DNA of 64,000 nucleotides from Patescibacteria group bacterium (GCA_013387205.1 WARV01000024.1:11283-75282), one strand, 5' to 3'; shown: positions 963 through 54,990, counted from the stretch's first letter. Notes: generated by a model not told the origin, from the letters alone. Program-made: numbers and translations.

Positions 963-1199
963 ATGTTTTACTTTTATATTTTAAAATGCAAAGATGGGAC
1001 GCTTTATAGCGGGATTACGAACGATTTGGAAAAAAGGGGAAAGGCGCATAATGCCGGCAAAGGATCCAAATATGTCTGGGCGCACGGCGGGGGAAAAATG
1101 GTTTACAGCGAAAGGTTCCGCTCAAAATCCAAAGCCTTAAAACGGGAAGCTCAAGTGAAAAAAATTTCGCGGGCAGAAAAACTCAAGCTGATAAAATAA
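963..1199 (+). CDS. GIY-YIG nuclease family small protein
   Basis: 78 aa, MFYFYILKCKDGTLYSGITNDLEKRGKAHN..: the GIY...YIG motifs and conserved R/E of UPF0213-like GIY-YIG proteins. Confidence 0.85.
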   Translation: MFYFYILKCKDGTLYSGITNDLEKRGKAHNAGKGSKYVWAHGGGKMVYSERFRSKSKALKREAQVKKISRAEKLKLIK

Positions 1200-5123: not shown

Positions 5124-5192
5124 ATTATTTCAAATACTTATATTAATCCTTAAACTTTATACTTGGTTTAAATAATGATAATTCCGCTGATT

Positions 5193-5298
5193 TCTCGCGG
5201 ATTACTACGCCCCAAAGGGGCCACTCTGTGGCGGATCTCACGCTGATATAATCTTTCCGCGTGTTATCTGCGTTGCTATCTGCGTCCGTTCCGCGGTT
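5193..5298. repeat. Dispersed repeat family G (CGCCCCAAAGGGGCCAC..GTGGCGG plus CTGCGTTGCTATCTGCG modules) in the rpsH-rplF spacer
   Basis: Reverse-complement paralogs at 18258-18290 and 19858-19915. The CTGCGTTGCTATC(C/T)GCG module recurs at 50690-50720. Confidence 0.65.
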
Positions 5299-7772: not shown

Positions 7773-7958
7773 TTAGGCTTTTTGCTTAAGATAAGTTAAT
7801 ATTCTGGCAATATCTTTTTTAATAGCGCCAATCTTGTGCGTGTTCTTAAGCTGGTTTAAGCGCATCTTTACGGACATATCCTGGTATTCCTGCTGTAGTT
7901 CTTCCAGCAAATTGCGGATTTCGGCGTCGGTTTTGGCTTTTAATTCTTTAAACTTCAT
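7773..7958 (-). CDS. rpmC: 50S ribosomal protein L29
   Basis: 61 aa, MKFKELKAKTDAEIRNLLEEL. Confidence 0.9.
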   Translation of the reverse strand: MKFKELKAKTDAEIRNLLEELQQEYQDMSVKMRLNQLKNTHKIGAIKKDIARILTYLKQKA

Positions 7959-7960
7959 AG

Positions 7961-8090
7961 ATTTACTTCGTAAATTTTCTACTAAATACTAATTGATACT
8001 AAATGTACTAAATCTTATCCGAGTATACTTAATTGATATCACCGCTGGTATATAGCTTTAGTATATTTCGTATATTTTAGTATTTAGTAG
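7961..8090. mobile_element. MITE-like repeat family B, copy 1 (..CTACTAAATACTAA ... TTAGTATTTAGTAG)
   Basis: Terminal IRs plus a shared 5' leader AGATTTACTTCGTAAATTTTCTACTAAATAC that is identical to copy 3 at 22847. It fills the rpmC-rplP spacer and abuts the L29 start codon. Confidence 0.75.
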
Positions 8091-8095
8091 AGATG

Positions 8096-8506
8096 TTATT
8101 TCTCTTTTATTAAAAACTTGCTCTTTACCGGAAGCTTGTAGCTGGCAAGCCTCATGGCTTCCCTGGCCTGGGCTTCGGTCACGCCGTCCATCTCGAACAT
8201 TATCTTTCCTCTCTTAACAACAGAAACAAAGTGGTCCACAGCGCCTTTTCCGCCTCCCATGGGAGATTCGTTTCCGTGCACGGTCACTGGCTTGTCGGCA
8301 AATACCCTAATCCAAATTTTTCCGCCGCGCTGCACGTATCTGGTCATGGCGCGCCTGGCTGCTTCAATCTGCCTGGCGGTAACCCAGGAGCCTTCCATGG
8401 CTTTTAAGGCGAACCTGCCGAAAGATATTGTTTCTCCGGCAGTGGCCTTGCCCCAGGTGTCTCCCCTATGGTGTTTGCGGTGTTTTAACTTCTTTGGAAT
8501 AAACAT
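8096..8506 (-). CDS. rplP: 50S ribosomal protein L16
   Basis: 136 aa. Confidence 0.95.
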
Positions 8507-9989: not shown

Positions 9990-10086
9990 TTGAACAAAAT
10001 TTAAAAAATTAAATAAAATTGAACATAATTATAACTGCAGCTTATTTTTGTCTTTTATGTCAATTTTGTCATTTTTGTCATTCCCC
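9990..10086. repeat. Family C spacer element with phased 9-bp TTTTTGTCA/TGTCA direct repeats
   Basis: TAAATTAATTGAACAAAATTTAAA...ATGTCAATTTTGTCATTTTTGTCATTCC. It is about 90% identical to 10425-10528 and its repeats are shared with 38795-38865. Confidence 0.7.
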
Positions 10087-10419
10087 TTACTTCTTCTCCG
10101 GTTCCTTGGCTGCCTGCAGCTTGGCTTTTTCGGCCGCTGCCTTGGCTGCTTCCTGCTCTTTGGCCATCTTACCGCCATGCCTGATGAATTTCCTGGTTAG
10201 GGCGAATTCGCCGAGCTTGTGGCCGACCATATTTTCGGTAACGAATACCGGCATGTGGGCCCTGCCGTTATGGACCAAAAAGGTAAAGCCTACCATCTCA
10301 GGGGCGATTGCGGAATCGCGCGACCAGGTTTTAATCTGGTCTTTTCCCGGACGTCCGGCCAAAACCTTTTTCATTAATTTTGGATCAATAAATGGTCCTT
10401 TTTTTAGCGATCTAGACAT
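10087..10419 (-). CDS. rpsS: 30S ribosomal protein S19 with Ala/Lys-rich C-terminal tail
   Basis: 110 aa. Confidence 0.95.
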
Positions 10420-10424
10420 AAATT

Positions 10425-10528
10425 AATTGAGCAAAATTTAAATAATTAAATAAAATTGAACATAATTGATACTGCAACTCTTGCTTATATTTTTATCATT
10501 TATGTCAATTTTGTCATTTTTGTCAATT
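10425..10528. repeat. Family C spacer element, copy 2
   Basis: See 9990-10086. Confidence 0.7.
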
Positions 10529-11365
10529 CTACTTGCTTCTCCTCTTAACTATCATCCTATTGCTATATTTCTTCTTGGTTCTGGTCTTAACGCCAAGTGC
10601 GTGTCTGCCCCAAGGAGTTTTTGGATATTTCAAACCAATCGGGTTATGGCCTTCTCCACCACCATGAGGGTGATCAACAGGGTTCATCACTTTACCTCTG
10701 ACAGACGGCCTCCAGCCCATTAATCTCTTTCTTCCGGCCTTGCCTATCCGTACGTTCATCCAGTCGGAGTTCGCAACCTGGCCAATAGATGCCAAAGCAG
10801 TTTCCTTGATTTTCCTAATTTCGCCGCTGGGCATTTTAAGCAAAGCATATCCGGCTTCAATGTTCTGCAAAGTGGCGTAGCTTCCGGCGCTTCTGGAAAT
10901 CCTGCCGCCCTGTCCCGGTATCAATTCAATGTCATGGATCAAGGTTCCAACTGGTATCCTGCTTATAGGCAGCCTGTTGCCTGGCTTGATTTCTGCGCTT
11001 TCAGAATAAATAACAGTATCGCCGACTTTCAACCCTTCCGGAGCCAAAACGTATCTCTTAGTCCCGTCTTTGTAAGCGACTAAAGAAATAAATGCGCTGC
11101 GGGTCGGATCGTATTCCAAAGTCTGAACCTTGGCCGGAATATCTTTCTTGTCGATTCTGGAAAAATCAGTGATTCTCAAAACTCTCCTGAATCCCCCGCC
11201 CTGGTGGCGGACGGTAATTTTGCCGCTGTTATTGCGGCCAGCCTGCTTGGTTTTTGCCACGAGCAAATGGCGCGGAGTCTGGACATTCTTCTTTAAAACA
11301 GAATAATCCGTAACACTGTGAATACGCCTTCCTGCAGATGTTGGTTTGTAAATTTTTACGCTCAT
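10529..11365 (-). CDS. rplB: 50S ribosomal protein L2
   Basis: 278 aa. Confidence 0.95.
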   Translation of the reverse strand: MSVKIYKPTSAGRRIHSVTDYSVLKKNVQTPRHLLVAKTKQAGRNNSGKITVRHQGGGFRRVLRITDFSRIDKKDIPAKVQTLEYDPTRSAFISLVAYKDGTKRYVLAPEGLKVGDTVIYSESAEIKPGNRLPISRIPVGTLIHDIELIPGQGGRISRSAGSYATLQNIEAGYALLKMPSGEIRKIKETALASIGQVANSDWMNVRIGKAGRKRLMGWRPSVRGKVMNPVDHPHGGGEGHNPIGLKYPKTPWGRHALGVKTRTKKKYSNRMIVKRRSK

Positions 11366-11378
11366 ATGATTCGCTTTT

Positions 11379-11488
11379 CTACTAAATACTAATTGATACT
11401 AATTGTACTAAATATCATCAAATATACTTAATCGATCTCACTACTGGTATATGCTTTAGTATCTTTCGTATATTTTAGTATTTAGCAG
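11379..11488. mobile_element. MITE-like repeat family B, copy 2
   Basis: CTACTAAATACTAATTGATACTAATTGTACTAAATA...TTAGTATTTAGCAG in the rplB-rplW spacer. Confidence 0.75.
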
Positions 11489-11495
11489 AGATTGA

Positions 11496-11852
11496 TTAAA
11501 TAGTTTCTACCGTTCCTTCTATCTTGTCTCCGTCTTTTAAGGTTACCACGGCTTTCTTAAAACCGCTGGTCTTGCCGCTGACTCTGCCGTAATTCTTGGT
11601 TTTGCCTTTGATGTTTATCATGTTTACCATGACAACTTTGACCTGGTACGCGGTTTCCACTGCTTTCTTTACGGAAATCTTATTGGCAGACTTGGCTACT
11701 TTAAAGACATACTTGTTGCCGGCAACTAATTTTCCGGCTTTCTCGGAAATCCTGGGCTGAACCAAAACGTTTTGAAGCACCTTAGGAAGCTTTCCGGATT
11801 TAGGCTTATCAGCCTGCTTGCTGCCTTCTTCAGTTTTGTTAAAAATTGCCAT
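11496..11852 (-). CDS. rplW: 50S ribosomal protein L23 (N-terminally extended)
   Basis: 118 aa. Confidence 0.9.
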   Translation of the reverse strand: MAIFNKTEEGSKQADKPKSGKLPKVLQNVLVQPRISEKAGKLVAGNKYVFKVAKSANKISVKKAVETAYQVKVVMVNMINIKGKTKNYGRVSGKTSGFKKAVVTLKDGDKIEGTVETI

Positions 11853-13384: not shown

Positions 13385-13409
13385 CCGCCTTCGCATAAAG
13401 CTTCGGCGG
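13385..13409. repeat. Repeat family K hairpin (CCGCC-TTCGCATAAAGCTTC-GGCGG)
   Basis: Paralogs at 18133-18155, 19236-19270 (rc), 19745-19775, 54866-54885 (rc) and 54941-54965 (rc). Confidence 0.6.
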
Positions 13410-15035: not shown

Positions 15036-16226
<1,191 letters not shown>

Positions 16227-16476
16227 GAGAAGTGTTTCCTTTCTTTCGTCCCGAGAAACCCTAAGCCTTGCGTCTATCGATTTGGCGCAAGGCCAAGGGT
16301 TTTTCTCTTTTTTTCCTAACCTGCCATGTCCCAAATCCGCCAACTGGCGGATAGGACGGTCGGATCGGAATCCAGGGACGATTATGCCACTTTTAGGTGG
16401 CAATATTAATTGTTATACGCATGTTAAATTTTAAAGAATTTTTCCCATCCTGTCAAACACCATAAAATAACAAAAC

Positions 16477-16515
16477 GATGGGAATCTTCTGGGGCAGCCC
16501 CAGAAGATTCCCATC
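16477..16515. repeat. Palindromic hairpin (GATGGGAATCTTCTGGGGC/GCCCCAGAAGATTCCCATC)
   Basis: 19-bp perfect stem with the same GATGGGAATCTT core as 31-68. It lies just downstream of the lipoprotein gene stop. Confidence 0.6.
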
Positions 16516-16526
16516 AAGGAAACTCA

Positions 16527-17636
16527 TTATTGTCCTGACGGCTTTATTAATTCCGTTGATACGTTTAAAGACTTTACAATGTCGGTTAAATTAGACTCAG
16601 GAGTTTTTTGCCAAACAACCACATAATTTCCCCCGGTTTGCGGCGAGAAAATAATCCACTGCTCGCTTCCCTTGGCAAAACTTTGCATGTCTTTCGCATT
16701 CTGGATTTCAATTTTATTTTCAGCCTTTTTGCAATCGGGACAAGGCTTAACGGCATTCCAATATTCCAAAGCACTGGAAGCCCCAATGGCATCGTTGCTG
16801 TAAAACCCGATCTTCAACAAATTATTTTTGCTTTTGTCGCTCAGGATTAAATAATTATTTTGTTTAGTGATTATATATTTGTCTTTTGGATAATTTAGGC
16901 TGTAATGGAACCGGGTTACATATCCTTCGTAATTGGCGTCATGCGTCCCGGAGTAATTCGCCTGCTTTGAATCAGAGATGAACTTAAACGTGCCGAGTAC
17001 CTGATCCAGCCTGTTCCAAACTTCCGTCTGGTTAAATTCTTTAATCGTTCCTTTAGGGTAATTGTCGATGTTGGTATTAGCAACGCGCTGCATTATTTCG
17101 TAGCAGGTGTTATTATGGAAACTCCTGTAAACTTTAACACTGTCAAAATGCCCTAAGGCTGCACCACCGCCAGTGGCCGAATGGAAATCAGTATTATTGA
17201 TTTTTACAATGCCGGCGTCTTTTTGAGCTTCGTTGGTTGAAACGTTAAAGTTATAGCACTGGCTTTGGGTATTTAAATCTTTCAAGATATTTACCGAAAC
17301 TCCGGCGCTGTCAAAATTCGTGCCTGAATATTTATCCTTGGTTAAATACGCACATGCAGCCGTTGTGTCATCACAAGCCGGAATATAAGAAAGCGGGCGG
17401 ATTTTGCTTATATCCGTGTTAAACCCAAAATCATTTGGGTACTGGATAGAAAACCCATACTTAGCAGGACTGGTATAAGTGTTCCAGCCATTCTTGTTGC
17501 CTTGGGGAAGATTTTGGGAATTATCACTGGTTAATGTGGATTGATTAGTCTGTTTTGGCTCGTTTTTTTGCGCCTGCTGATTACATGAAGCAGCAAGCAG
17601 TACTATCGCTGAAACCAAAAATAGATATTTCTTCAT
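16527..17636 (-). CDS. Hypothetical secreted protein / putative lipoprotein
   Basis: 369 aa. N-terminal signal peptide MKKYLFLVSAIVLLAASC with a lipobox-like AASC, then an N/Q/S/T-rich mature region. Confidence 0.5.
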   Translation of the reverse strand: MKKYLFLVSAIVLLAASCNQQAQKNEPKQTNQSTLTSDNSQNLPQGNKNGWNTYTSPAKYGFSIQYPNDFGFNTDISKIRPLSYIPACDDTTAACAYLTKDKYSGTNFDSAGVSVNILKDLNTQSQCYNFNVSTNEAQKDAGIVKINNTDFHSATGGGAALGHFDSVKVYRSFHNNTCYEIMQRVANTNIDNYPKGTIKEFNQTEVWNRLDQVLGTFKFISDSKQANYSGTHDANYEGYVTRFHYSLNYPKDKYIITKQNNYLILSDKSKNNLLKIGFYSNDAIGASSALEYWNAVKPCPDCKKAENKIEIQNAKDMQSFAKGSEQWIIFSPQTGGNYVVVWQKTPESNLTDIVKSLNVSTELIKPSGQ

Positions 17637-17669
17637 AAAATCGCCGATCTAATTATTTGAGCTATCCTG

Positions 17670-17743
17670 GACCCCGGATCAAGCCCGGGGTGGAAACCAA
17701 GGGTACCATCCCGGAATTTTTCAGGGCTGTGAAAAATATCCGG
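17670..17743. repeat. 74-bp direct repeat, left copy, flanking a GIY-YIG gene
   Basis: CAAGCCCGGGGTGGAAACCAAGGGTACCATCCCGGAATTTTTCAGGGCTGTGAAAAATATCCGGGATCCAGTAC, about 80% identical to 18161-18234. Confidence 0.7.
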
Positions 17744-17792
17744 GATCCAGTACTTATGCTTTAATCCTGAATCAAGTTCAGGACAGGCTCTA

Positions 17793-18086
17793 TTAAATAA
17801 TTTTATTATATAAATCTTCCCAATTAGGATTTATCTTCTCAATTAATTCCAATTTCCATTTTCGATACCATCTTTTTAACTGTTTTTCCCGCTTTATGGC
17901 TTCTTCCCTGTCTTCAAAGACTTCATAATAAACCAATCGATGAACCTGGTATTCTTGAGTAAATCCTTTGACAATGTTGTTTTTATGGGTAAAAACCCTG
18001 TTTACAAGATTATTTGTAAAACCGGTATACAAAGTCCCATTCCTATGACTGGCCAGCATATAAACATAATACACTTTATTATCCAT
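17793..18086 (-). CDS. GIY-YIG nuclease family small protein
   Basis: MDNKVYYVYMLASHRNGTLYTGFTNNLVNRVFTHKNN.. The upstream in-frame extension of the ORF runs into the repeat and is probably not translated. Confidence 0.8.
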   Translation of the reverse strand: MDNKVYYVYMLASHRNGTLYTGFTNNLVNRVFTHKNNIVKGFTQEYQVHRLVYYEVFEDREEAIKREKQLKRWYRKWKLELIEKINPNWEDLYNKII

Positions 18087-18120
18087 TGTTTTTGTATTTG
18101 TTTCTGGCTTTTTCCTGGAC

Positions 18121-18300
18121 CTCGGGTCCCATCCTTCGCATAAAGCTACGGCGGGCACAGCAAGCCCGGGGTGGAAACCGAGGACACCATCCAGGAATTT
18201 CGAGTGTATCGGAGAAATATCCGGGATCCAGTACATATTCGCATTGTATAATTCAGCCACGAAGTGGCCCCTTCGAGGCGTACTTATCGGCGACGTTTCT
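18121..18300. repeat. Composite repeat block (family K hairpin, right 74-bp direct repeat at 18161-18234, family G module)
   Basis: CCTTCGCATAAAGCTACGGCGG, then the CAAGCCCGGGGTGGAAACC..CCGGGATCCAGTAC repeat, then CAGCCACGAAGTGGCCCCTTCGAGGCG. Confidence 0.7.
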
Positions 18301-18305
18301 GCGGT

Positions 18306-18701
18306 CTAGAAATCTTCAAACTCCACTTTCGGGCCTTCGAAGTTGAAACTAGTGTCTATAACTTCTTCTTTAACAATTACTTCTTCGCGCAGGTCCTGAA
18401 AGCGTGAAGGAAAAACCTGGCGGGTAGATTGCACTTGAGGCGCAACTGTTTTCCTAAATGGAGTTTCCACTACAGGTTCAATAGTATCTTTTTCCGTCAA
18501 TTGCGCTTTAATAATTTCTTTGTTGATTTTTTCAATATCTTCCGCCTGCTGGACAACCTTCTGCTGCAATTTGCCGAGCAGTAATTTTTGATATTCGTTA
18601 ATAGGCAATATCACCAGCTTAGCATCCCCTGCCTCATCCATAACAAAAAACTTCCCTCCGTCAGCCTTTGCCAGATTGATTAAATCTTGTAATTTTGACA
18701 T
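18306..18701 (-). CDS. Hypothetical protein with Phd/YefM-antitoxin-like N-terminal domain
   Basis: 131 aa. N-terminus LINLAKADGGKFFVMDEAGDAKLVILPINEYQKLL resembles the YefM/Phd fold. It has an acidic C-terminal extension. Confidence 0.45.
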   Translation of the reverse strand: MSKLQDLINLAKADGGKFFVMDEAGDAKLVILPINEYQKLLLGKLQQKVVQQAEDIEKINKEIIKAQLTEKDTIEPVVETPFRKTVAPQVQSTRQVFPSRFQDLREEVIVKEEVIDTSFNFEGPKVEFEDF

Positions 18702-18707
18702 ATTATT

Positions 18708-18783
18708 TTTCCACTAATTCACGAATTTACACAAATCACACTAAATACCAGTTTAGTGATATTAGTGAATTCGTGGATAAGTA
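18708..18783. mobile_element. MITE-like repeat family I, copy 1 (CACTAATTCACGAATT ... AATTCGTG)
   Basis: About 85% identical to 23413-23493. Both copies abut a start codon (the YefM-like ORF here, rpsL there). Confidence 0.7.
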
Positions 18784-18868
18784 ATTTTTGTATTCCCATT
18801 ATACCCCCATTCCCTCAGCTTTACAATCCCCTACAGATTTGGTATTCTAGGATGTTTAGGAGGAAAAA

Positions 18869-19138
18869 ATGGAAAGCAATGAAGAGCAGATTCTGCAAAG
18901 CTTACGGGAAAGGACCAAGGAAACACATGCTTCCCAGCGAGTCACTTTGCTCCTGGTCTATGGCCACAAAGTGAAAGGAGAACTGTATCATGTGGGCGAA
19001 AAAGACATCACCCTGCGTGTCACCCCGTGGTGGCGATCCCTGTTCGGGCTGGGTGCCATATTCTTCCACTGCCACCCGAGCAAGATTGTGGGCTATGCTG
19101 CCCAGTTCATCGACCGTAGCGGCTCTGTTCTCGACTGA
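18869..19138 (+). CDS. Hypothetical small protein
   Basis: 89 aa with a strong SD (AGGAGG, 7 nt upstream). Its GC content is higher than the flanks. Confidence 0.5.
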   Translation: MESNEEQILQSLRERTKETHASQRVTLLLVYGHKVKGELYHVGEKDITLRVTPWWRSLFGLGAIFFHCHPSKIVGYAAQFIDRSGSVLD

Positions 19139-19235
19139 CTACTGGTTATTAGCCTACGATTACCTTAACACGGCCCCCGCCGGAATTACCGGCGGTGGGC
19201 TTTTTCTTTTTGCCTTGTCACGCCGAAGCCTTGCC

Positions 19236-19272
19236 TTGCCCGCCATAGCTTTACGCGAAGGCTGGGGCGAAG
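19236..19272. repeat. Family K repeat (reverse orientation)
   Basis: CCGCCATAGCTTTACGCGAAGGCTGGGGCGAAGGCGG. Confidence 0.55.
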
Positions 19273-19349
19273 GCGGATGCTTTACAATTCCCTGCCCTTT
19301 TGTTATTCTAACCATCGCAATATGGTCTCAGACGAGAGGAGGAACATTA

Positions 19350-19595
19350 ATGGCAGGTTCCGTTATTTCTGCAGCCGTGCATTATGAATGCACAGATCCG
19401 AAAAAAGATAACTCTGGGTATCTAATCATGGTGCCGGTAGTTGAAGGCACCAATATCCCAGACGTCACCAAGACTGGCACAATTGTTGCAAAAAGAGAAT
19501 CCGGAGATATCACCGTAGAGGCAAGGATTCCAAACATCAATTACTGCCCGGAATGCGGTGCGCACATTCACGACGATCCGATACCGCGACGCTGA
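19350..19595 (+). CDS. Hypothetical small protein with C-terminal CPECG zinc-ribbon-like motif
   Basis: 81 aa. GAGGAGG SD 7 nt upstream of the ATG at 19350. Confidence 0.5.
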   Translation: MAGSVISAAVHYECTDPKKDNSGYLIMVPVVEGTNIPDVTKTGTIVAKRESGDITVEARIPNINYCPECGAHIHDDPIPRR

Positions 19596-19744
19596 ATTTC
19601 CTTTTGCCCTAACCGCCCAATCCCGACTTTTTGGGACAAGCGGTTCAGGGCTTTTCTTTTTGCTTGAATTACGTAATCTTTTTGTCATTGCGAGGAGACA
19701 AAGGGCTTTATCTTTGCCGACGAAGCAATCTTTTCATGATTAAG

Positions 19745-19915
19745 ATTGCTTTCACCTTCGCTAAAGCTACGGCGGACAAGTCGGCTGCACTCATAAGACA
19801 TCTAGCCAATTTTAAAGGGCCAACCGTTAGGTTGGCCCTTTCAACTTCAGCGATATATCCGCCACGAAGTGGCCCCTTTGGGGCGTTGCTATCCGCGAGT
19901 AATCCGCGGTACTAC
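19745..19915. repeat. Composite repeat block (family K plus family G modules) downstream of fusA
   Basis: CCTTCGCTAAAGCTACGGCGG ... CCGCCACGAAGTGGCCCCTTTGGGGCGTTGCTATCCGCGAGTAATCCGCGG. Confidence 0.65.
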
Positions 19916-22035
19916 ATACCCTTTCTCACATTAACGCCAGCGCGGGATTCAATAATCTTCTGCGCAATATTGCGAGGCACTTCGGCGTAGTGGTCGAATT
20001 CCATAGTGTAGGATGCTTGTCCCTGCGTCATGGAACGCAAAGTTGTGGCGTAGCCGAACATTTCGGACAGCGGCACAAAAGCGTCAATAATCTTAAGATG
20101 CAAGCGGTCAGTCATTTCGTTAATCTGCGCGCGCTTGGAGTTAAGGTCGCCGATAACGTCACCCATGTTGGTTTCCGGAGTGGTAACTTCCACTTTCATA
20201 ATCGGCTCCAAAATAATCGGATCAGCTCTCTTAATCACATCTTGAAGTCCCTTGGAAGCGGCGATTTTAAATGCCATTTCAGAAGAGTCTACTTCGTGGT
20301 AAGAACCGTCGTAAACGGCAATTTGAAAGTCCACCAAAGGATATCCGGCAATAACGCCGTTGGCAGCAGATTCCTGAATACCTTTATCAATCGGTTTGAT
20401 ATATTCTTTAGGAATAACACCGCCGACGATTTCATCAAGGAATTTATAACCTTCGCCTCTGGCAAGCGGCTCGGCACGCAAGTAAACGTGCCCGTACTGC
20501 CCGCGTCCGCCGGACTGGCGGATGTATTTGCTTTCCGCGGTGGCCGTACTCTTGATGGTTTCCTTGTAAGCGACTTCCGGCTTTCCGACGTTGGCTTCCA
20601 CTTTAAATTCGCGCTTCATGCGGTCCACAATGATTTCCAAGTGCAATTCGCCCATTCCGGCAATAATTGTCTGCTGGGTTTCTTCGTTGGTAGACAACTT
20701 GAAGGTCGGATCTTCTTCAGCCAGCTTGGACAAAGCAATGCCCATTTTTTCCTGGTCAGCTTTGGTCTTAGGCTCAACAGCCATGTGAATGACCGGATCT
20801 GCGAACTTAATGGCTTCCAAAACAATCGGCTTGTCCATATCGCAAAGCGTGTCACCGGTAAAGGTGTCTTTGGGCCCAACGAGCGCGCAAATGTCTCCGG
20901 CAAAAACTTCCTTGACTTCGTCGCGCTGATCCGCGCGCATGCGCACAATACGTCCTACGCGCTCTTTATTTTGGGTACGCGCGTTAAGAACGTAAGAGCC
21001 AGCTTCCAGCTTCCCCGAGTATACGCGGAAGAAAGCCAAGCGTCCGACGAACGGGTCAGTGGCAATTTTAAAAGCCAAAGCCGTAAATGGTTCATCATCG
21101 GAAGGTTTGCGTTCTAACGGCGCTTCGGTTTTTGGTTCATGGCCTTTTACCGATCCCCTGTCAGTCGGGCTAGGCAAAAAGTTGGTAACAGCGTCCAAAA
21201 TGGTCTGCACAATAACCCCGCGTCCGTCTCCGCCTAAAACCGGGAAGAATTTTCCGCCCTGCACGGCCTTGCGGATAGCAGTCAAAAATTCCTGTTCGGT
21301 CAATTCCTGTCCGCCTAAGTATTTTTCCATCAAAGCATCGTCGCTTTCCACAACTTTTTCCATGAGCTTATGGCGATATTCTTTGGCTTTTTCCATCATA
21401 TCTGCCGGCACTTCTTCGATAGTGAATTCTTTATCAGTAAAATCTTTGTAGGTGTAAGCCTTCATGTTAATCAAGTCCACGACGCCGCGAATTTCTTTTT
21501 CAAAACCGATTGGGATTTGAATAGGAAAAGCGTTCGGAGACAATCTCTTGTGGATGGAATCGAGCGAGCGGTAAAAATCGCCGCCGGTCTGGTTGATCTT
21601 GTTGATAAAGCACATGCGAGGCACCTGATACTTGTCAGCCTGGCGCCAGACAGTTTCGGACTGCGGCTCCACGCCCATCTTGCCGTCGAACACGACTACG
21701 GCGCCGTCCAAGACGCGCAAAGAGCGCTCCACTTCCACGGTAAAGTCCACGTGGCCCGGAGTGTCAATAATGTTGATTTTGTGCTTGGTGTCGCCGCCGA
21801 GCTTTATAAAGCGCGGGGTCCAATAGCAAGTCACGGCCGCGGAAGTAATGGTAATTCCGCGTTCGCGTTCCTGCTCCATCCAGTCAGTCACGGTCTCGCC
21901 TTCGTGCACCGCGCCGATCTTATGGATCATTCCTGTGTTATATAAGATACCTTCGGTAACCGTGGTCTTGCCGGCATCAATGTGCGCGATAATCCCAATG
22001 TTACGAGTTACCTCAATAGGATACTCTCTTGGCAT
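19912..22035 (-). CDS. fusA: Elongation factor G
   Basis: 707 aa, [16 protein letters not shown].. Confidence 0.97.
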
Positions 22036-22297: not shown

Positions 22298-22846
22298 TTA
22301 TCTTCTGTTAAATCTCGCAAAGTGCGCGAAAGCCTTGTTGGCTTCGGCCATGCGGTGGGTGTCGTCGCGCTTCTTGACTGCAGCGCCAATCTTGTTGTAG
22401 GCATCCATAATTTCCGCGGCGAGCTTTTCACGCATCGGGGCGCCTTTTCTGGACTGGGCAGCGGCAATCATCCACTTCATTCCCAAAGTGGTCCTTCTTG
22501 GTTCCATGACTTCCATCGGAACCTGATAGTTGGACCCGCCAATGCGGCGGCCTTTAATTTCCATCAACGGGGAAACGTTTTTCAAGGCAATGTCAAAAAC
22601 CTGGCGGCCATCCAAAACTTTTTCCTTATTCCCTTCGCCTTTGGCAGCAGGCGCTGGTGTAGCGGCTGCCGGGGCTGATTTCATTTTTTCAGTGACAATC
22701 TCCAAAGCATCGTAAAAGATTTTCCTGGCCACGTTCTTCTTGCCGTTCTGCATCATGTAATTGATGAATTTGGCGTATTTGACGCTGCCGAATTTCAGGT
22801 CAGGAAGCGGAGTGTGTTTGTCGTAACTTCTAGATTTTCTTGGCAT
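22298..22846 (-). CDS. rpsG: 30S ribosomal protein S7 (with Ala/Pro-rich insertion)
   Basis: 182 aa. Confidence 0.95.
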   Translation of the reverse strand: MPRKSRSYDKHTPLPDLKFGSVKYAKFINYMMQNGKKNVARKIFYDALEIVTEKMKSAPAAATPAPAAKGEGNKEKVLDGRQVFDIALKNVSPLMEIKGRRIGGSNYQVPMEVMEPRRTTLGMKWMIAAAQSRKGAPMREKLAAEIMDAYNKIGAAVKKRDDTHRMAEANKAFAHFARFNRR

Positions 22847-22990
22847 AGATTTACTTCGTAAATTTTCTACTAAATACTAATTATTACTAATTGTACTAAA
22901 TATTATCAACCAAGCTTTATTGATATCACTGTTGGTATATAGCTTTAGTATATTTAGTATCCTTTAGTATTTAGTAGAAGTATTAGTAGA
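22847..22990. mobile_element. MITE-like repeat family B, copy 3 (rpsL-rpsG spacer)
   Basis: AGATTTACTTCGTAAATTTTCTACTAAATACTAATTATTACTAATTGTACTAAATA...TTAGTATTTAGTAG. It abuts the S7 start. Confidence 0.75.
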
Positions 22991-22994
22991 GAGA

Positions 22995-23408
22995 TTATTT
23001 AGCTTTTGCTCCATATTTGCTTCTGCCGCGTTTTCGACCGTCAACGCCTAAGGTATCTAATTTGCCGCGGACAATGTGATAGCGAACGCCTGGAAGGTCC
23101 TTAACCCTTCCACCGCGGATCATGACCACGCTGTGTTCCTGCAAGTTGTGGCCGATTCCTGGAATGTAAGCAATAACTTCCATTCCGTTGGTGAGTTTGA
23201 CTTTTGCCACCTTGCGCAAAGCCGAGTTCGGCTTTTTCGGGGTGGTGGTGTAAACCTTTAAGCACACGCCGCGCATAAAAGGAGCGCCGGTTTTGATGTG
23301 CAAGGTTTTGTTCTTAATCAGGTTGACGCGGCGCAAAAGTGCCGGAGACTTGCTCTTGGCCAAAAGCGGGCGCCTGCCTTTTCGAACTAATTGGTTAATT
23401 GTTGGCAT
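22995..23408 (-). CDS. rpsL: 30S ribosomal protein S12 (with about 13-aa internal insertion)
   Basis: 137 aa, [13 protein letters not shown].. Confidence 0.95.
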
Positions 23409-23412
23409 ACTT

Positions 23413-23493
23413 CTCCACTAATTCACGAATTTACACGAATCACACTAAATACCAGATTAGTGATATTAGTGATGATTAGTGAATTCGTGGATA
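23413..23493. mobile_element. MITE-like repeat family I, copy 2 (immediately upstream of rpsL)
   Basis: CCACTAATTCACGAATTTACACGAATCACACTAAATACCAGATTAGTGATATTAGTGATGATTAGTGAATTCGTGG. Confidence 0.7.
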
Positions 23494-24884: not shown

Positions 24885-24926
24885 GCGCGACTTAAAACCG
24901 CTTTTTCTTTTTTAATGATTATTTCT

Positions 24927-24964
24927 ATTCCCGGATTTCGAGCGATCGCTCGAAATCCGGGAAT
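24927..24964. repeat. Perfect 38-bp palindrome ATTCCCGGATTTCGAGCGATCGCTCGAAATCCGGGAAT
   Basis: Stem-loop or terminator, or an operator-like site. Confidence 0.6.
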
Positions 24965-25038
24965 AGATCAATTTCACTTTTCTGACATTTCTCCAATACT
25001 ACATAGTATTGTACTTTTGTCAGAGTTTGATGATACAA

Positions 25039-30925: not shown

Positions 30926-31192
30926 CTATTTATGCATTCTAATATAGTTTTCCAGTTTATCATTCAACACTTCTCTCCCGTAGCCAGTTTTAAAAAATCT
31001 CTCTGATTTCATTGCATCAGCTTTCTCTAAATAAGCTTCGTAATATATTAATTTGAATGGTGCATGTTTCTTTGTATAACTACCGCCTCTCTTTCTGTTA
31101 TGCTCTGACAAAAATCTTCTTTTTAAATCATCAGTATAACCTTTATACAAAGCCCCATCTTTTAAACTTTCTAACACATAAAAATACCACAT
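30926..31192 (-). CDS. GIY-YIG nuclease family small protein
   Basis: 88 aa, MWYFYVLESLKDGALYKGYTDDLKRRFLSEHN. Confidence 0.85.
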   Translation of the reverse strand: MWYFYVLESLKDGALYKGYTDDLKRRFLSEHNRKRGGSYTKKHAPFKLIYYEAYLEKADAMKSERFFKTGYGREVLNDKLENYIRMHK

Positions 31193-31216
31193 TTTTAATC
31201 CTTTTTAGGATTTCTT

Positions 31217-31290
31217 TGGTCGGGATGCCGAGAATCGAACTCGGACTACATGCACCCCATGCATGCGTACTACCACTATACTACATCCCG
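31217..31290 (-). tRNA. tRNA-Pro (anticodon GGG)
   Basis: Minus strand reads CGGGATG-TA-GTAT-AGTGGTA-GTAC-G-CATGC-ATGGGGT-GCATG-TAGT-CCGAG-TTCGATT-CTCGG-CATCCCG-A-CCA. The C1:G72 pair is typical of bacterial tRNA-Pro. Confidence 0.85.
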
Positions 31291-38646: not shown

Positions 38647-38865
38647 AGATTAAATGACAAAATTGACAAAATTTAAATAATTAACATAAATGACGCTTGG
38701 CGTCATCCTGAGCGAATGCAGCTGAGCGAAGGATCTCTTGAGCAACAAGAGAAGATTCCTCGGCTGCACTCGGAATGACAACTTCATATAAAATAAGGTT
38801 TGTCATTTTTGTCATTTATGTCATTCTCGTCGTTTTTGTCATTTGGATTATTTTTGTTTCCATAT
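38647..38865. mobile_element. Composite palindromic element: TGACAAA(A) 9-bp direct-repeat arrays flanking a GTCATCCTGAGCGAATGC...GCACTCGGAATGAC inverted-repeat core
   Basis: The core at about 38690-38790 is paralogous to in-frame insertions at 41181-41325 (leuS) and 49920-50070 (M24 peptidase). The flanks share TTTTTGTCA units with family C. Confidence 0.7.
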
Positions 38866-54829: not shown

Positions 54830-54990
54830 ATGCAGTGGCGTCATTCCGCTTGTCCTCCGTAGCTTTAGCGAAGGTGGAAGCGAGCGAGGAATCTCTTTGT
54901 TTAAAATATCCAGATCCTTCACTGTGTTCAGAGCCTGCCCCGGACTTGCTGTGCCCGCCGTAGCTTTATGCGAAGGCTGGGATCCGGGGA
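54830..54990. repeat. Composite repeat block (family K hairpins in reverse orientation plus a partial 74-bp repeat)
   Basis: CCTCCGTAGCTTTAGCGAAGGTGG ... GCCCGCCGTAGCTTTATGCGAAGGCTGGGATCCGGGGATGAAGCCCGTG. Confidence 0.65.

Follow-up and report, generated by a model that had tools for sequence, protein, structure and literature searches.

The genes fusA and tuf lie 3,685 bp apart in a 64,000-nucleotide stretch of a Patescibacteria (candidate phyla radiation, CPR) genome (GCA_013387205.1 WARV01000024.1:11283-75282; the whole stretch is hereafter called the window), and the spacer between them (16227-19911) holds a small GIY-YIG nuclease gene, here called ssn, bracketed by direct repeats. We find that ssn very probably encodes a nuclease of the Ssn family, that the direct repeats are its cognate hairpins, and that the cassette formed by gene and hairpins occupies a fusA–tuf spacer that varies among relatives. 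This reading is carried by homology, a covarying hairpin structure, an association of gene and hairpin across genomes and a pattern of synteny, all of which are observed directly. The Ssn nuclease and the architecture of its SRM hairpins are already known (PMC11893778); the long-stem variant of the hairpin and the CPR host are new.

The ssn gene and its flanking hairpins

SsnA of Neisseria meningitidis is a 94-amino-acid (aa) single-domain GIY-YIG protein (cd10448; Chenal et al., Nat Commun 2025, PMC11893778), which binds the NTS hairpin solely as single-stranded DNA (ssDNA) and cuts a few nucleotides upstream of it; the catalytic residues that were mutated are Y6, Y17 and E64. Ssn homologs occur across phyla with related hairpins (SRMs), at least one in 71% and on both sides in 42%, every tested homolog cuts beside its own SRM, and hairpin–ssn–hairpin is the hallmark architecture (PMC11893778). 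The published SRM motif reads HGTCWYN(0-2)YYVSBRHN(0-5)WNVSBRGN(0-2)RNCYNB, and in Neisseria the C right after the palindrome is the nucleotide most important for binding, while the three nucleotides 5' of the palindrome influence cleavage (PMC11893778). The cassette in the window consists of the following features, in which bit scores and E values refer to covariance model R1.

17661-17700, minus strand (forward relative to ssn): downstream short SRM-like hairpin, 27 bits, E 1.5e-4
17699-17756, plus strand (reverse relative to ssn): downstream long-stem SRM hairpin, 65 bits, E 9e-15
17793-18086, minus strand: ssn, 97-aa single-domain GIY-YIG nuclease gene placed in the Ssn family, GC 0.31
18109-18181, minus strand (forward relative to ssn): upstream short SRM-like hairpin, 20 bits, E 0.012
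18180-18237, plus strand (same orientation as the downstream one): upstream long-stem SRM hairpin, 54 bits, E 1e-11

A preliminary description of the window had reported the GIY-YIG open reading frame (ORF) at 17793-18086, and Pfam PF01541 confirms it (residues 6-79, E 8.7e-18), with no second domain in the protein. More than 7,200 homologs are found at E<=1e-10, nearly all of them 94-99 aa long, and the best, also 94-99 aa, are 65-82% identical to the window protein. The public gene call, P0001, begins at a GTG and gives 155 aa (17793-18260), which takes in the upstream hairpins and is too long; a start at the ATG at 18086 agrees with the family length of 94-99 aa. Residues Y9, Y20 and E67, which fall in YVY, LYTG and REKQ motifs, have the same spacing (11 and 47 residues) as Y6, Y17 and E64 of SsnA, a correspondence taken from spacing in the sequence as compared with the published residues (PMC11893778) and not from an alignment with SsnA.

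A metagenome scan supplied 79 further homolog loci, and flanks were compared over 81 loci (individual loci carry the prefix L below). Two homologs of 65-66% identity, L089 and L090, are flanked by the strict N. meningitidis NTS, GTCATTCCCGCGAAAGCGGGAATCCAG, and around more distant homologs the flanking hairpins read TGTCATTCCCGCGAAGGCGGGAATCCAG, which is the Neisseria NTS. Significant flanking repeats are present in 54 of the 81 loci (40 inverted, 27 direct; cross-locus null with a 95th percentile of about 30-35), and 27 of the 81 flank pairs contain the published SRM motif, as a rule in forward orientation near -41 and in reverse between +7 and +23; direct-orientation flanks are found elsewhere too, for example in L090. 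We assign ssn to the Ssn family because of the NTS-flanked homologs, the SRM flanks, the spacing of the catalytic residues and the published architecture. By analogy with the characterised members, cleavage by the window protein would be specific to ssDNA: the enzyme would bind its cognate NTS/SRM hairpin in single-stranded form and cut a few nucleotides 5' of it.

The 74-bp direct repeats of the preliminary description are real and 81% identical, but its first coordinate was 10 nt out of register and it understated their length. In register, 17680-17753 and 18161-18234 match at 60 of 74 positions, against 16 of 74 for the pair proposed earlier (17670-17743 and 18161-18234), and the full repeat covers about 93 nt (17665-17757 versus 18113-18238; local alignment score 86, cross-locus null 99th percentile 43), with the upstream copy interrupted by a 34-nt insert from a different repeat family. 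Each ~93-nt repeat is a REPIN-like doublet, in which a long-stem SRM variant runs against the direction of ssn and a short SRM-like hairpin runs along it. The repeats appear direct because the upstream and downstream long hairpins share an orientation, and since each repeat is a doublet of long and short hairpins, a forward-SRM, ssn, reverse-SRM arrangement is embedded in the direct repeat. The downstream long-stem hairpin reads CCAT-CCCGGAATTTTTCA...TGAAAAATATCCGGGAT-CCAG and the downstream short one TCCA-CCCCGGG-CTTGAT-CCGGGG-TCCAGG; the loop of the upstream short hairpin holds the 34-nt insert, CTGTGCCCGCCGTAGCTTTATGCGAAGGATGGGA, which belongs to the 'B' repeat family, and the composite of this hairpin and its insert is also present at 54938-54989 (92% complementary).

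In blastn searches the repeat sequence of the window flanks ssn homologs in unrelated neighbourhoods too. The long-stem variant is confined to a clade of at least 74% identity (window, L081, L083/86, L085, L087 and L088) and flanks all homologs at that level, in three contexts: yefM-like–ssn–lipoprotein, proC–ssn–hypothetical and htrA-like–ssn–ruvX. The second and third of these, in L081 (proC) and L085 (htrA-like protease and ruvX), are unrelated to the neighbourhood in the window, and the homologs there are about 80% identical. All six other distinct loci of the clade have hairpins both 5' and 3' of ssn; five of them (L081, L083/L086, L085 and L088) have the long-stem variant on both sides, whereas in L087 only the downstream hairpin is of the long type and the upstream one is a medium-stem SRM (27 bits). 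In the flanks of these close homologs the upstream long hairpin reads CCAT-CCCGGAATTTTT...AAAAATATCCGGGAT-CCAG and the downstream one is its reverse complement.

In an alignment of 11 hairpin copies, 94% of the 18-bp helix is paired, seven pairs show compensatory changes, and covariation scores 0.244 compared with 0.092 for shuffles. The bulged base is invariant, as are the tags CCAT and (AT)CCAG, including the C directly after the palindrome, and sequence conservation ends at the outer CCAT tag. Folded as ssDNA, the hairpins have z of about -5 and the downstream doublet has z of -4.0 to -4.8. The covariance model also detects an orphan doublet in L002, between rpsG and fusA, which bridges the long-stem variant and the canonical SRMs because it combines a GTCAT tag with the same bulged stem. 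The repeats are linked to the GIY-YIG gene by function, and the idea of a ubiquitous family unrelated to it, an alternative that the preliminary description had raised, is not borne out: they flank close homologs in three neighbourhoods, and model R1 finds the SRM hairpin nowhere else in the window save for one tag-less palindrome (24920-24973). This perfect palindrome, TATTCCCGGATTTCGAGCGATCGCTCGAAATCCGGGAATA, is SRM-stem-like, lacks the orientation tags and is analogous to dRS3 versus NTS in Neisseria. A search for exact repeat patterns in 80 fusA loci found none, and sensitive blastn together with the covariance model was needed; no Rfam family matched the region, whether at the gathering threshold or with the cutoff relaxed to E<=1.

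Several points weigh against the Ssn/SRM assignment. The upstream long hairpin is degenerate, and its canonical form is not the minimum-energy fold. Searching with the published SRM motif yields nothing at the ssn flanks and one chance-level match in the window, the hairpins here having too long a stem and CCAT in place of GTCAT as their 5' tag. Cleavage in Neisseria is influenced by the three nucleotides before the palindrome, so the window enzyme, if active, must have another specificity. Only about five SRM-like sites are present in 64 kb, which makes a Neisseria-like role in genome-wide marking unlikely. Placement in the family was reached via homologs and not by direct comparison with N. 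meningitidis SsnA or CDD cd10448, and the solved structures closest to the protein are those of UPF0213 proteins rather than of an Ssn.

Set beside the published Ssn/SRM systems, the window protein is likewise a single-domain GIY-YIG protein (97 aa; Ssn about 95 aa). Oriented hairpin repeats stand to either side of its gene, forward upstream and reverse downstream, and carry the 3' tag ATCCAG, with a C immediately following the palindrome; homologs of the protein at 65-66% identity carry the exact NTS. The locus departs from the published systems in its host, the Patescibacteria not being mentioned in PMC11893778, in a stem of about 18 bp with a bulged base as opposed to about 7 bp, in the tag CCAT in place of GTCAT and the consequent failure of the published motif, in hairpins that form doublets in direct orientation, and in showing no genome-wide hairpin expansion within the 64 kb. 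The locus extends the Ssn/SRM system to the CPR, and since the published search motif misses the long-stem clade, both the reach of the family and the breadth of its specificities have been counted too low. An active enzyme recognising an 18-bp stem with another 5' tag would give ssDNA tools a new specificity.

RAYT/REP-REPIN systems are domesticated IS200/IS605 Y1 transposases flanked by REP hairpins. The window resembles them in having a single-copy nuclease gene flanked by cognate hairpins, hairpin doublets in inverted orientation and probable recognition of the hairpin in ssDNA. Unlike them, its catalytic domain is GIY-YIG and not HUH/Y1, and no dispersed REPIN population is seen, only the tag-less palindrome at 24920-24973 and the orphan doublet of L002.

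Two further GIY-YIG genes in the window belong to other subfamilies (33-35% identical to ssn). Each lies immediately downstream of a co-oriented tRNA gene, 963-1196 (plus strand) after tRNA-Ala (765-838) and 30980-31195 (minus strand) after tRNA-Pro (31217-31290), and neither has SRM hairpins. In the organism of L090 and L165-L174, two ssn genes some 3 kb from each other belong to an island with many toxin-antitoxin genes (ParE, HicAB, PemK) and dense clusters of exact NTS hairpins.

A permissive fusA–tuf spacer

The str genes run on the minus strand in the order rpsL (22995-23408), rpsG (22298-22846), fusA (19912-22035), spacer, tuf (15036-16226). The spacer is real, and so are all the genes that the preliminary description listed for it, but its view of the region as one 3.7-kb accessory insertion splitting the str operon does not hold. 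The gene it called YefM-like is ancestral in about 13 related lineages, relatives often have gaps of 0.1-2.7 kb at this place, tuf carries a promoter of its own, and the order YefM-like–ssn–lipoprotein is also present in L083/L086 and L087. In this lineage of Patescibacteria the stretch from fusA to tuf is permissive and variable, not a freshly split operon, and what may be taken in these bacteria for insertions dividing the operon is for the most part a spacer of standing variability. In it, fusA ends in a hairpin block, tuf has its own promoter and leader, the 131-aa YefM-like gene is the ancestral occupant, and the ssn cassette, a lipoprotein gene and the antisense ORFan units vary in presence between relatives.

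Three close relatives by elongation factor G (EF-G) are L001-L003 (86-89% identity), which are labelled uncultured Saccharibacteria/Patescibacteria, with many further Patescibacteria matches at about 60-67%; the window, L083, L001 and L002 are roughly equidistant from one another (88-91%). Gaps of 0.1-2.7 kb between fusA and tuf are common in these relatives. In L001, fusA is followed by 620 bp that include a small antisense ORF, then by a homolog of the 131-aa protein (55% identical) and tuf; in L003 it is followed by another such homolog (37% identical), a 105-aa ORF and tuf. L083 (EF-G 89%; its sequence is identical to that of L086) has fusA, an antisense 75-aa ORF, a 131-aa homolog, a GIY-YIG gene whose product is 77% identical to the window protein, a gene for a 189-aa lipoprotein and tuf, and L087 has the C-terminus of a 131-aa homolog, a hairpin, a GIY-YIG gene (82% identical), a hairpin and a lipoprotein gene. 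The YefM-like–ssn–lipoprotein order is thus common to the window and at least two other lineages, L083/L086 and L087, and the cassette is not a recent private insertion because of this shared order. It is absent from the equally close relatives L001 and L003, and presence in three lineages with absence in two cannot be polarised as gain versus loss. Matches to fusA that seemed elongated in some loci were considered as inteins and rejected, being cross-hits to tuf.

The 131-aa gene and the sequence before it are annotated as follows.

18306-18701, minus strand: 'YefM-like' 131-aa gene, conserved small protein, ancestral resident of the fusA–tuf spacer
18704-18826, minus strand: promoter TTGTAA-17-TATAAT (18798-18826) and leader of the YefM-like gene

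The family of the 131-aa protein comprises 97 clusters among 1.8 billion representatives, and its alignment shows three conserved modules, GKVFVVDE.G..KLVIM...EY.KL, VNREIL.AQL and DLR.EVIDPSFDF; the EVIDPSFDF-like motif at the C-terminus is invariant across diverse Patescibacteria. A profile search places the family in the fusA–tuf spacer of 13 fetched loci besides the window, namely L001, L003, L083/L086, L016, L011 (12063-12416), L040, L019, L018 (12118-12435), L032 (13402-13704), L039 and L026 (12741-13121), and, upstream of ssn, L087. L044, which also matches the profile, is outside this count. The gene is mostly directly upstream of tuf, with ssn following it in the window, L083/L086 and L087 and another ORF following it in L003. 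Since these 13 loci reach down to about 60% EF-G identity, we regard the gene as ancestral and not inserted. A conserved small protein usually encoded immediately upstream of tuf is worth study by itself, and a link of the family to translation factors is possible.

The label 'YefM-like' is unsupported as a statement of antitoxin identity. Against Pfam the protein reaches RelB-like at E 0.0066 (16.7 bits, below the cutoff of 27), and of 40 family members 6 match RelB-like and 1 PhdYeFM, all below threshold (PF02604 is not reached). A profile search against the PDB gives YefM as the best match at E 0.2, and the AlphaFold2 model (predicted local distance difference test, pLDDT, 76; helix, strand, strand, long helix) finds no Foldseek match in the PDB at E<=0.001. 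No cognate toxin family adjoins the gene, the next gene being tuf in most relatives. The protein shares with Phd/YefM antitoxins its small size and a weak similarity over the N-terminal 45 residues; it differs from them in lacking a threshold match, a fold match and a toxin partner, in the conserved place that its gene takes in the fusA–tuf spacer of about 13 related lineages, usually right before tuf, and in the additional motifs VNREIL.AQL and EVIDPSFDF. PADLOC, PHROGs and NCBIfam returned nothing useful for any of the five spacer proteins. The 5' leader of rpsL (23408-23472) is duplicated before the YefM-like gene (18704-18768), with 94% identity over 65 nt and an extension to about 85 nt.

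Origin and mobility of the cassette

The preliminary description regarded the cassette as mobile or derived by recombination, and part of this survives: close homologs with hairpins stand in three contexts, the cassette is absent from L001 and L003, and its GC is 0.31. Mobility itself is plausible but unproven, and the cassette may spread, or may once have spread, as a unit. A stronger proposal is that hairpin–ssn–hairpin (about 440-480 bp) is an autonomous mobile element similar to an insertion sequence (IS), inserted in the spacer, with the direct doublets as end junctions of tandem or circular intermediates. Homologs about 80% identical with the same hairpins in three unrelated contexts, the absence of the cassette from L001 and L003, conservation that halts exactly at the outer CCAT tag, and a GC of 0.31 against 0.43 for the window all argue for it, as do cut sites predicted just outside the unit and the IS-like architecture remarked on by the Ssn authors (PMC11893778). 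Even so, we consider it unlikely. The 64-kb window holds one copy of this ssn type, and neither a target-site duplication nor a precise empty site can be defined among the relatives compared, the latter because L001 lacks both ssn and the lipoprotein gene. Occupation of the locus in three lineages accords with vertical descent and loss; the 18 contigs that carry the identical protein P0081 represent essentially one locus in many samples, and viral contigs contain no relatives. No strand-transfer activity is known for a GIY-YIG domain of 97 aa. In a more specific version, which is quite doubtful, the ~450-bp unit would be a self-mobilising ssDNA element, the doublets (right-end hairpin, 11 nt, left-end hairpin) would be tandem or circular junctions, and Patescibacteria would keep the selfish, unexpanded state of a system that is domesticated in Neisseria; if true, this would be the smallest autonomous mobile element in bacteria.

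Another possibility, that ssn is a domesticated, vertically inherited host gene whose hairpins serve solely in cis, be it as terminators, insulators or autoregulatory sites, and whose direct repeat arose by local duplication, seems to us rather improbable. It agrees with the synteny common to the window, L083/L086 and L087, with the small number of hairpin copies and with the fixed distances of the hairpins from the start and stop codons of ssn, but the hairpins accompany ssn into different neighbourhoods, no T-run follows them, and the characterised family binds its hairpin as ssDNA and not as RNA (PMC11893778). That the YefM-like and GIY-YIG genes form a toxin-antitoxin pair inserted as a module is suggested by their adjacency and common orientation in the window, L083 and L087 and by the weak YefM/RelB-like matches. 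Their independent distributions effectively refute it: the YefM-like gene is in the spacer without a GIY-YIG gene in L001, L003, L016, L011, L018, L019, L026, L032, L039 and L040, and ssn occurs without a YefM-like gene in L081 and L085. About 220 nt of hairpins also separate the two genes, and there is neither a Pfam match at threshold nor a fold match, so that we hold the pair to be highly improbable. A GIY-YIG domain with a patchy distribution could, finally, point to a free-standing homing endonuclease of the I-TevI type. This was rejected on domain architecture, the protein having 97 aa and no DNA-binding domain, and deserves next to no credence: ssn is not within an intron or intein, it has no viral relatives and no PHROG match, and flanking hairpins are, to our knowledge, not a feature of homing endonuclease genes.

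Antisense ORFans and other elements of the spacer

Between fusA and the YefM-like gene, the spacer carries two small transcription units in antisense to the str operon, each with a Shine-Dalgarno (SD) sequence, and on the tuf side of ssn it carries a lipoprotein gene and the tuf leader.

16227-16456, minus strand: tuf promoter and structured 5' leader, with TTGACA-17-TAAAAT at 16428-16456 (promoter score 11/12)
16476-16516: 19-bp terminator hairpin after the lipoprotein gene
16527-17636, minus strand: putative lipoprotein, 369 aa, signal peptide and LAASC, weak lipoprotein-signal matches
18820-19138, plus strand: sORF1 unit, with promoter TTTACA-17-TATTCT and TG extension (18820-18848), AGGAGG SD and an 89-aa ORFan (18869-19138)
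19177-19195: terminator-like hairpin after sORF1
19281-19595, plus strand: sORF2 unit, with the same promoter type (19281-19309), AGGAGG SD and an 81-aa ORFan (19350-19595) with C-terminal CPEC
19748-19910: block of small elements after the fusA stop ('A' element, 18-bp hairpin, 'B' element)
19748-19780: 'B' element of this block
19808-19847: 18-bp hairpin of this block
19853-19910: 'A' element, with copies also at 18248-18305 and 5179-5246

The small ORFs at 18869-19138 and 19350-19595 were described earlier as having near-perfect SDs and elevated GC, and we find AGGAGG before each and a GC of 0.53 for sORF1 and 0.48 for sORF2, compared with the window baseline of 0.43. Both are coding-like ORFans. 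The coding score of sORF1 is +1.3 in frame versus -15 +/- 4.7 out of frame, that of sORF2 is +1.7, and these in-frame scores are similar to those of the lipoprotein and ssn genes. Searched among 5.8 billion proteins, the two return self-matches only, and a single-sequence structure model of sORF2 is uninformative (pLDDT 45). The TTTACA-N17-TATTCT promoter with TG extension has two occurrences in the window, at sORF1 and at sORF2. Relatives have unrelated 75-90-aa ORFs behind the same promoter type in equivalent antisense positions, and pairwise comparison of the small ORFs across relatives shows no similarity; in this slot the promoters are conserved and the coding sequences are not. Members of the slot (window 18820-19138 and 19281-19595; L083 4043-4370; L001 12306-12640; L002 1734-2080) have a strong SD, lie antisense to the str operon and share a promoter made up of TTTACA or TTGACA, a CT-rich spacer and then TGNTATTCT; the -10 hexamer of L001, TATTTT, deviates from this pattern.

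The lipoprotein encoded at the same place in L087 has an N-terminal region that resembles that of the window protein by eye, with no alignment statistic (window NGWNTYTSPAKYGFSIQYPNDFGF, L087 AGWQTYRSIQYSFEFQYPPDFG), and the 189-aa lipoprotein at this place in L083 is unrelated to that of the window. The core of the tuf leader, GAAAAAAAGAGA.ACCCTTGGC...ATCGATA...AGGG..TCTCGGG, is conserved in L001, L003 and L083 and contains a 16-pair hairpin with compensatory changes at 4 pairs (leader positions: window 16227-16427; L001 13305-13468; L003 13118-13265; L083 5993-6194). It matches no Rfam family and is a candidate cis-regulatory RNA in this lineage.

Several small repeat families are found in the spacer and elsewhere in the window. 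An element of about 60 nt containing CGCCACGAAGTGGCCCCTTYGRGGCG stands directly after the stops of fusA and of the YefM-like gene (19853-19910 and 18248-18305), and its third copy is in another intergenic region (5179-5246). A family of hairpin repeats with the conserved loop CCGCC-GTAGCTTTANGCGAA-GGNGG, which contains a GTAG tag, has copies at 13388-13409, 18133-18154, 19240-19261, 54955-54976, 19748-19780 and 54849-54881; one is nested in the loop of the upstream short SRM, and this composite is the one repeated at 54938-54989. Numerous intergenic regions are made up of short 'word' repeats with a period of about 9-11 nt, for example TTTTGTCAT and ACTAAAT/ACTAATT, in blocks at 7956-8098, 10043-10534, 11356-11496, 22844-22985 (upstream of rpsG) and 38795-38859, and relatives have analogous but different 'word' repeats after stop codons.

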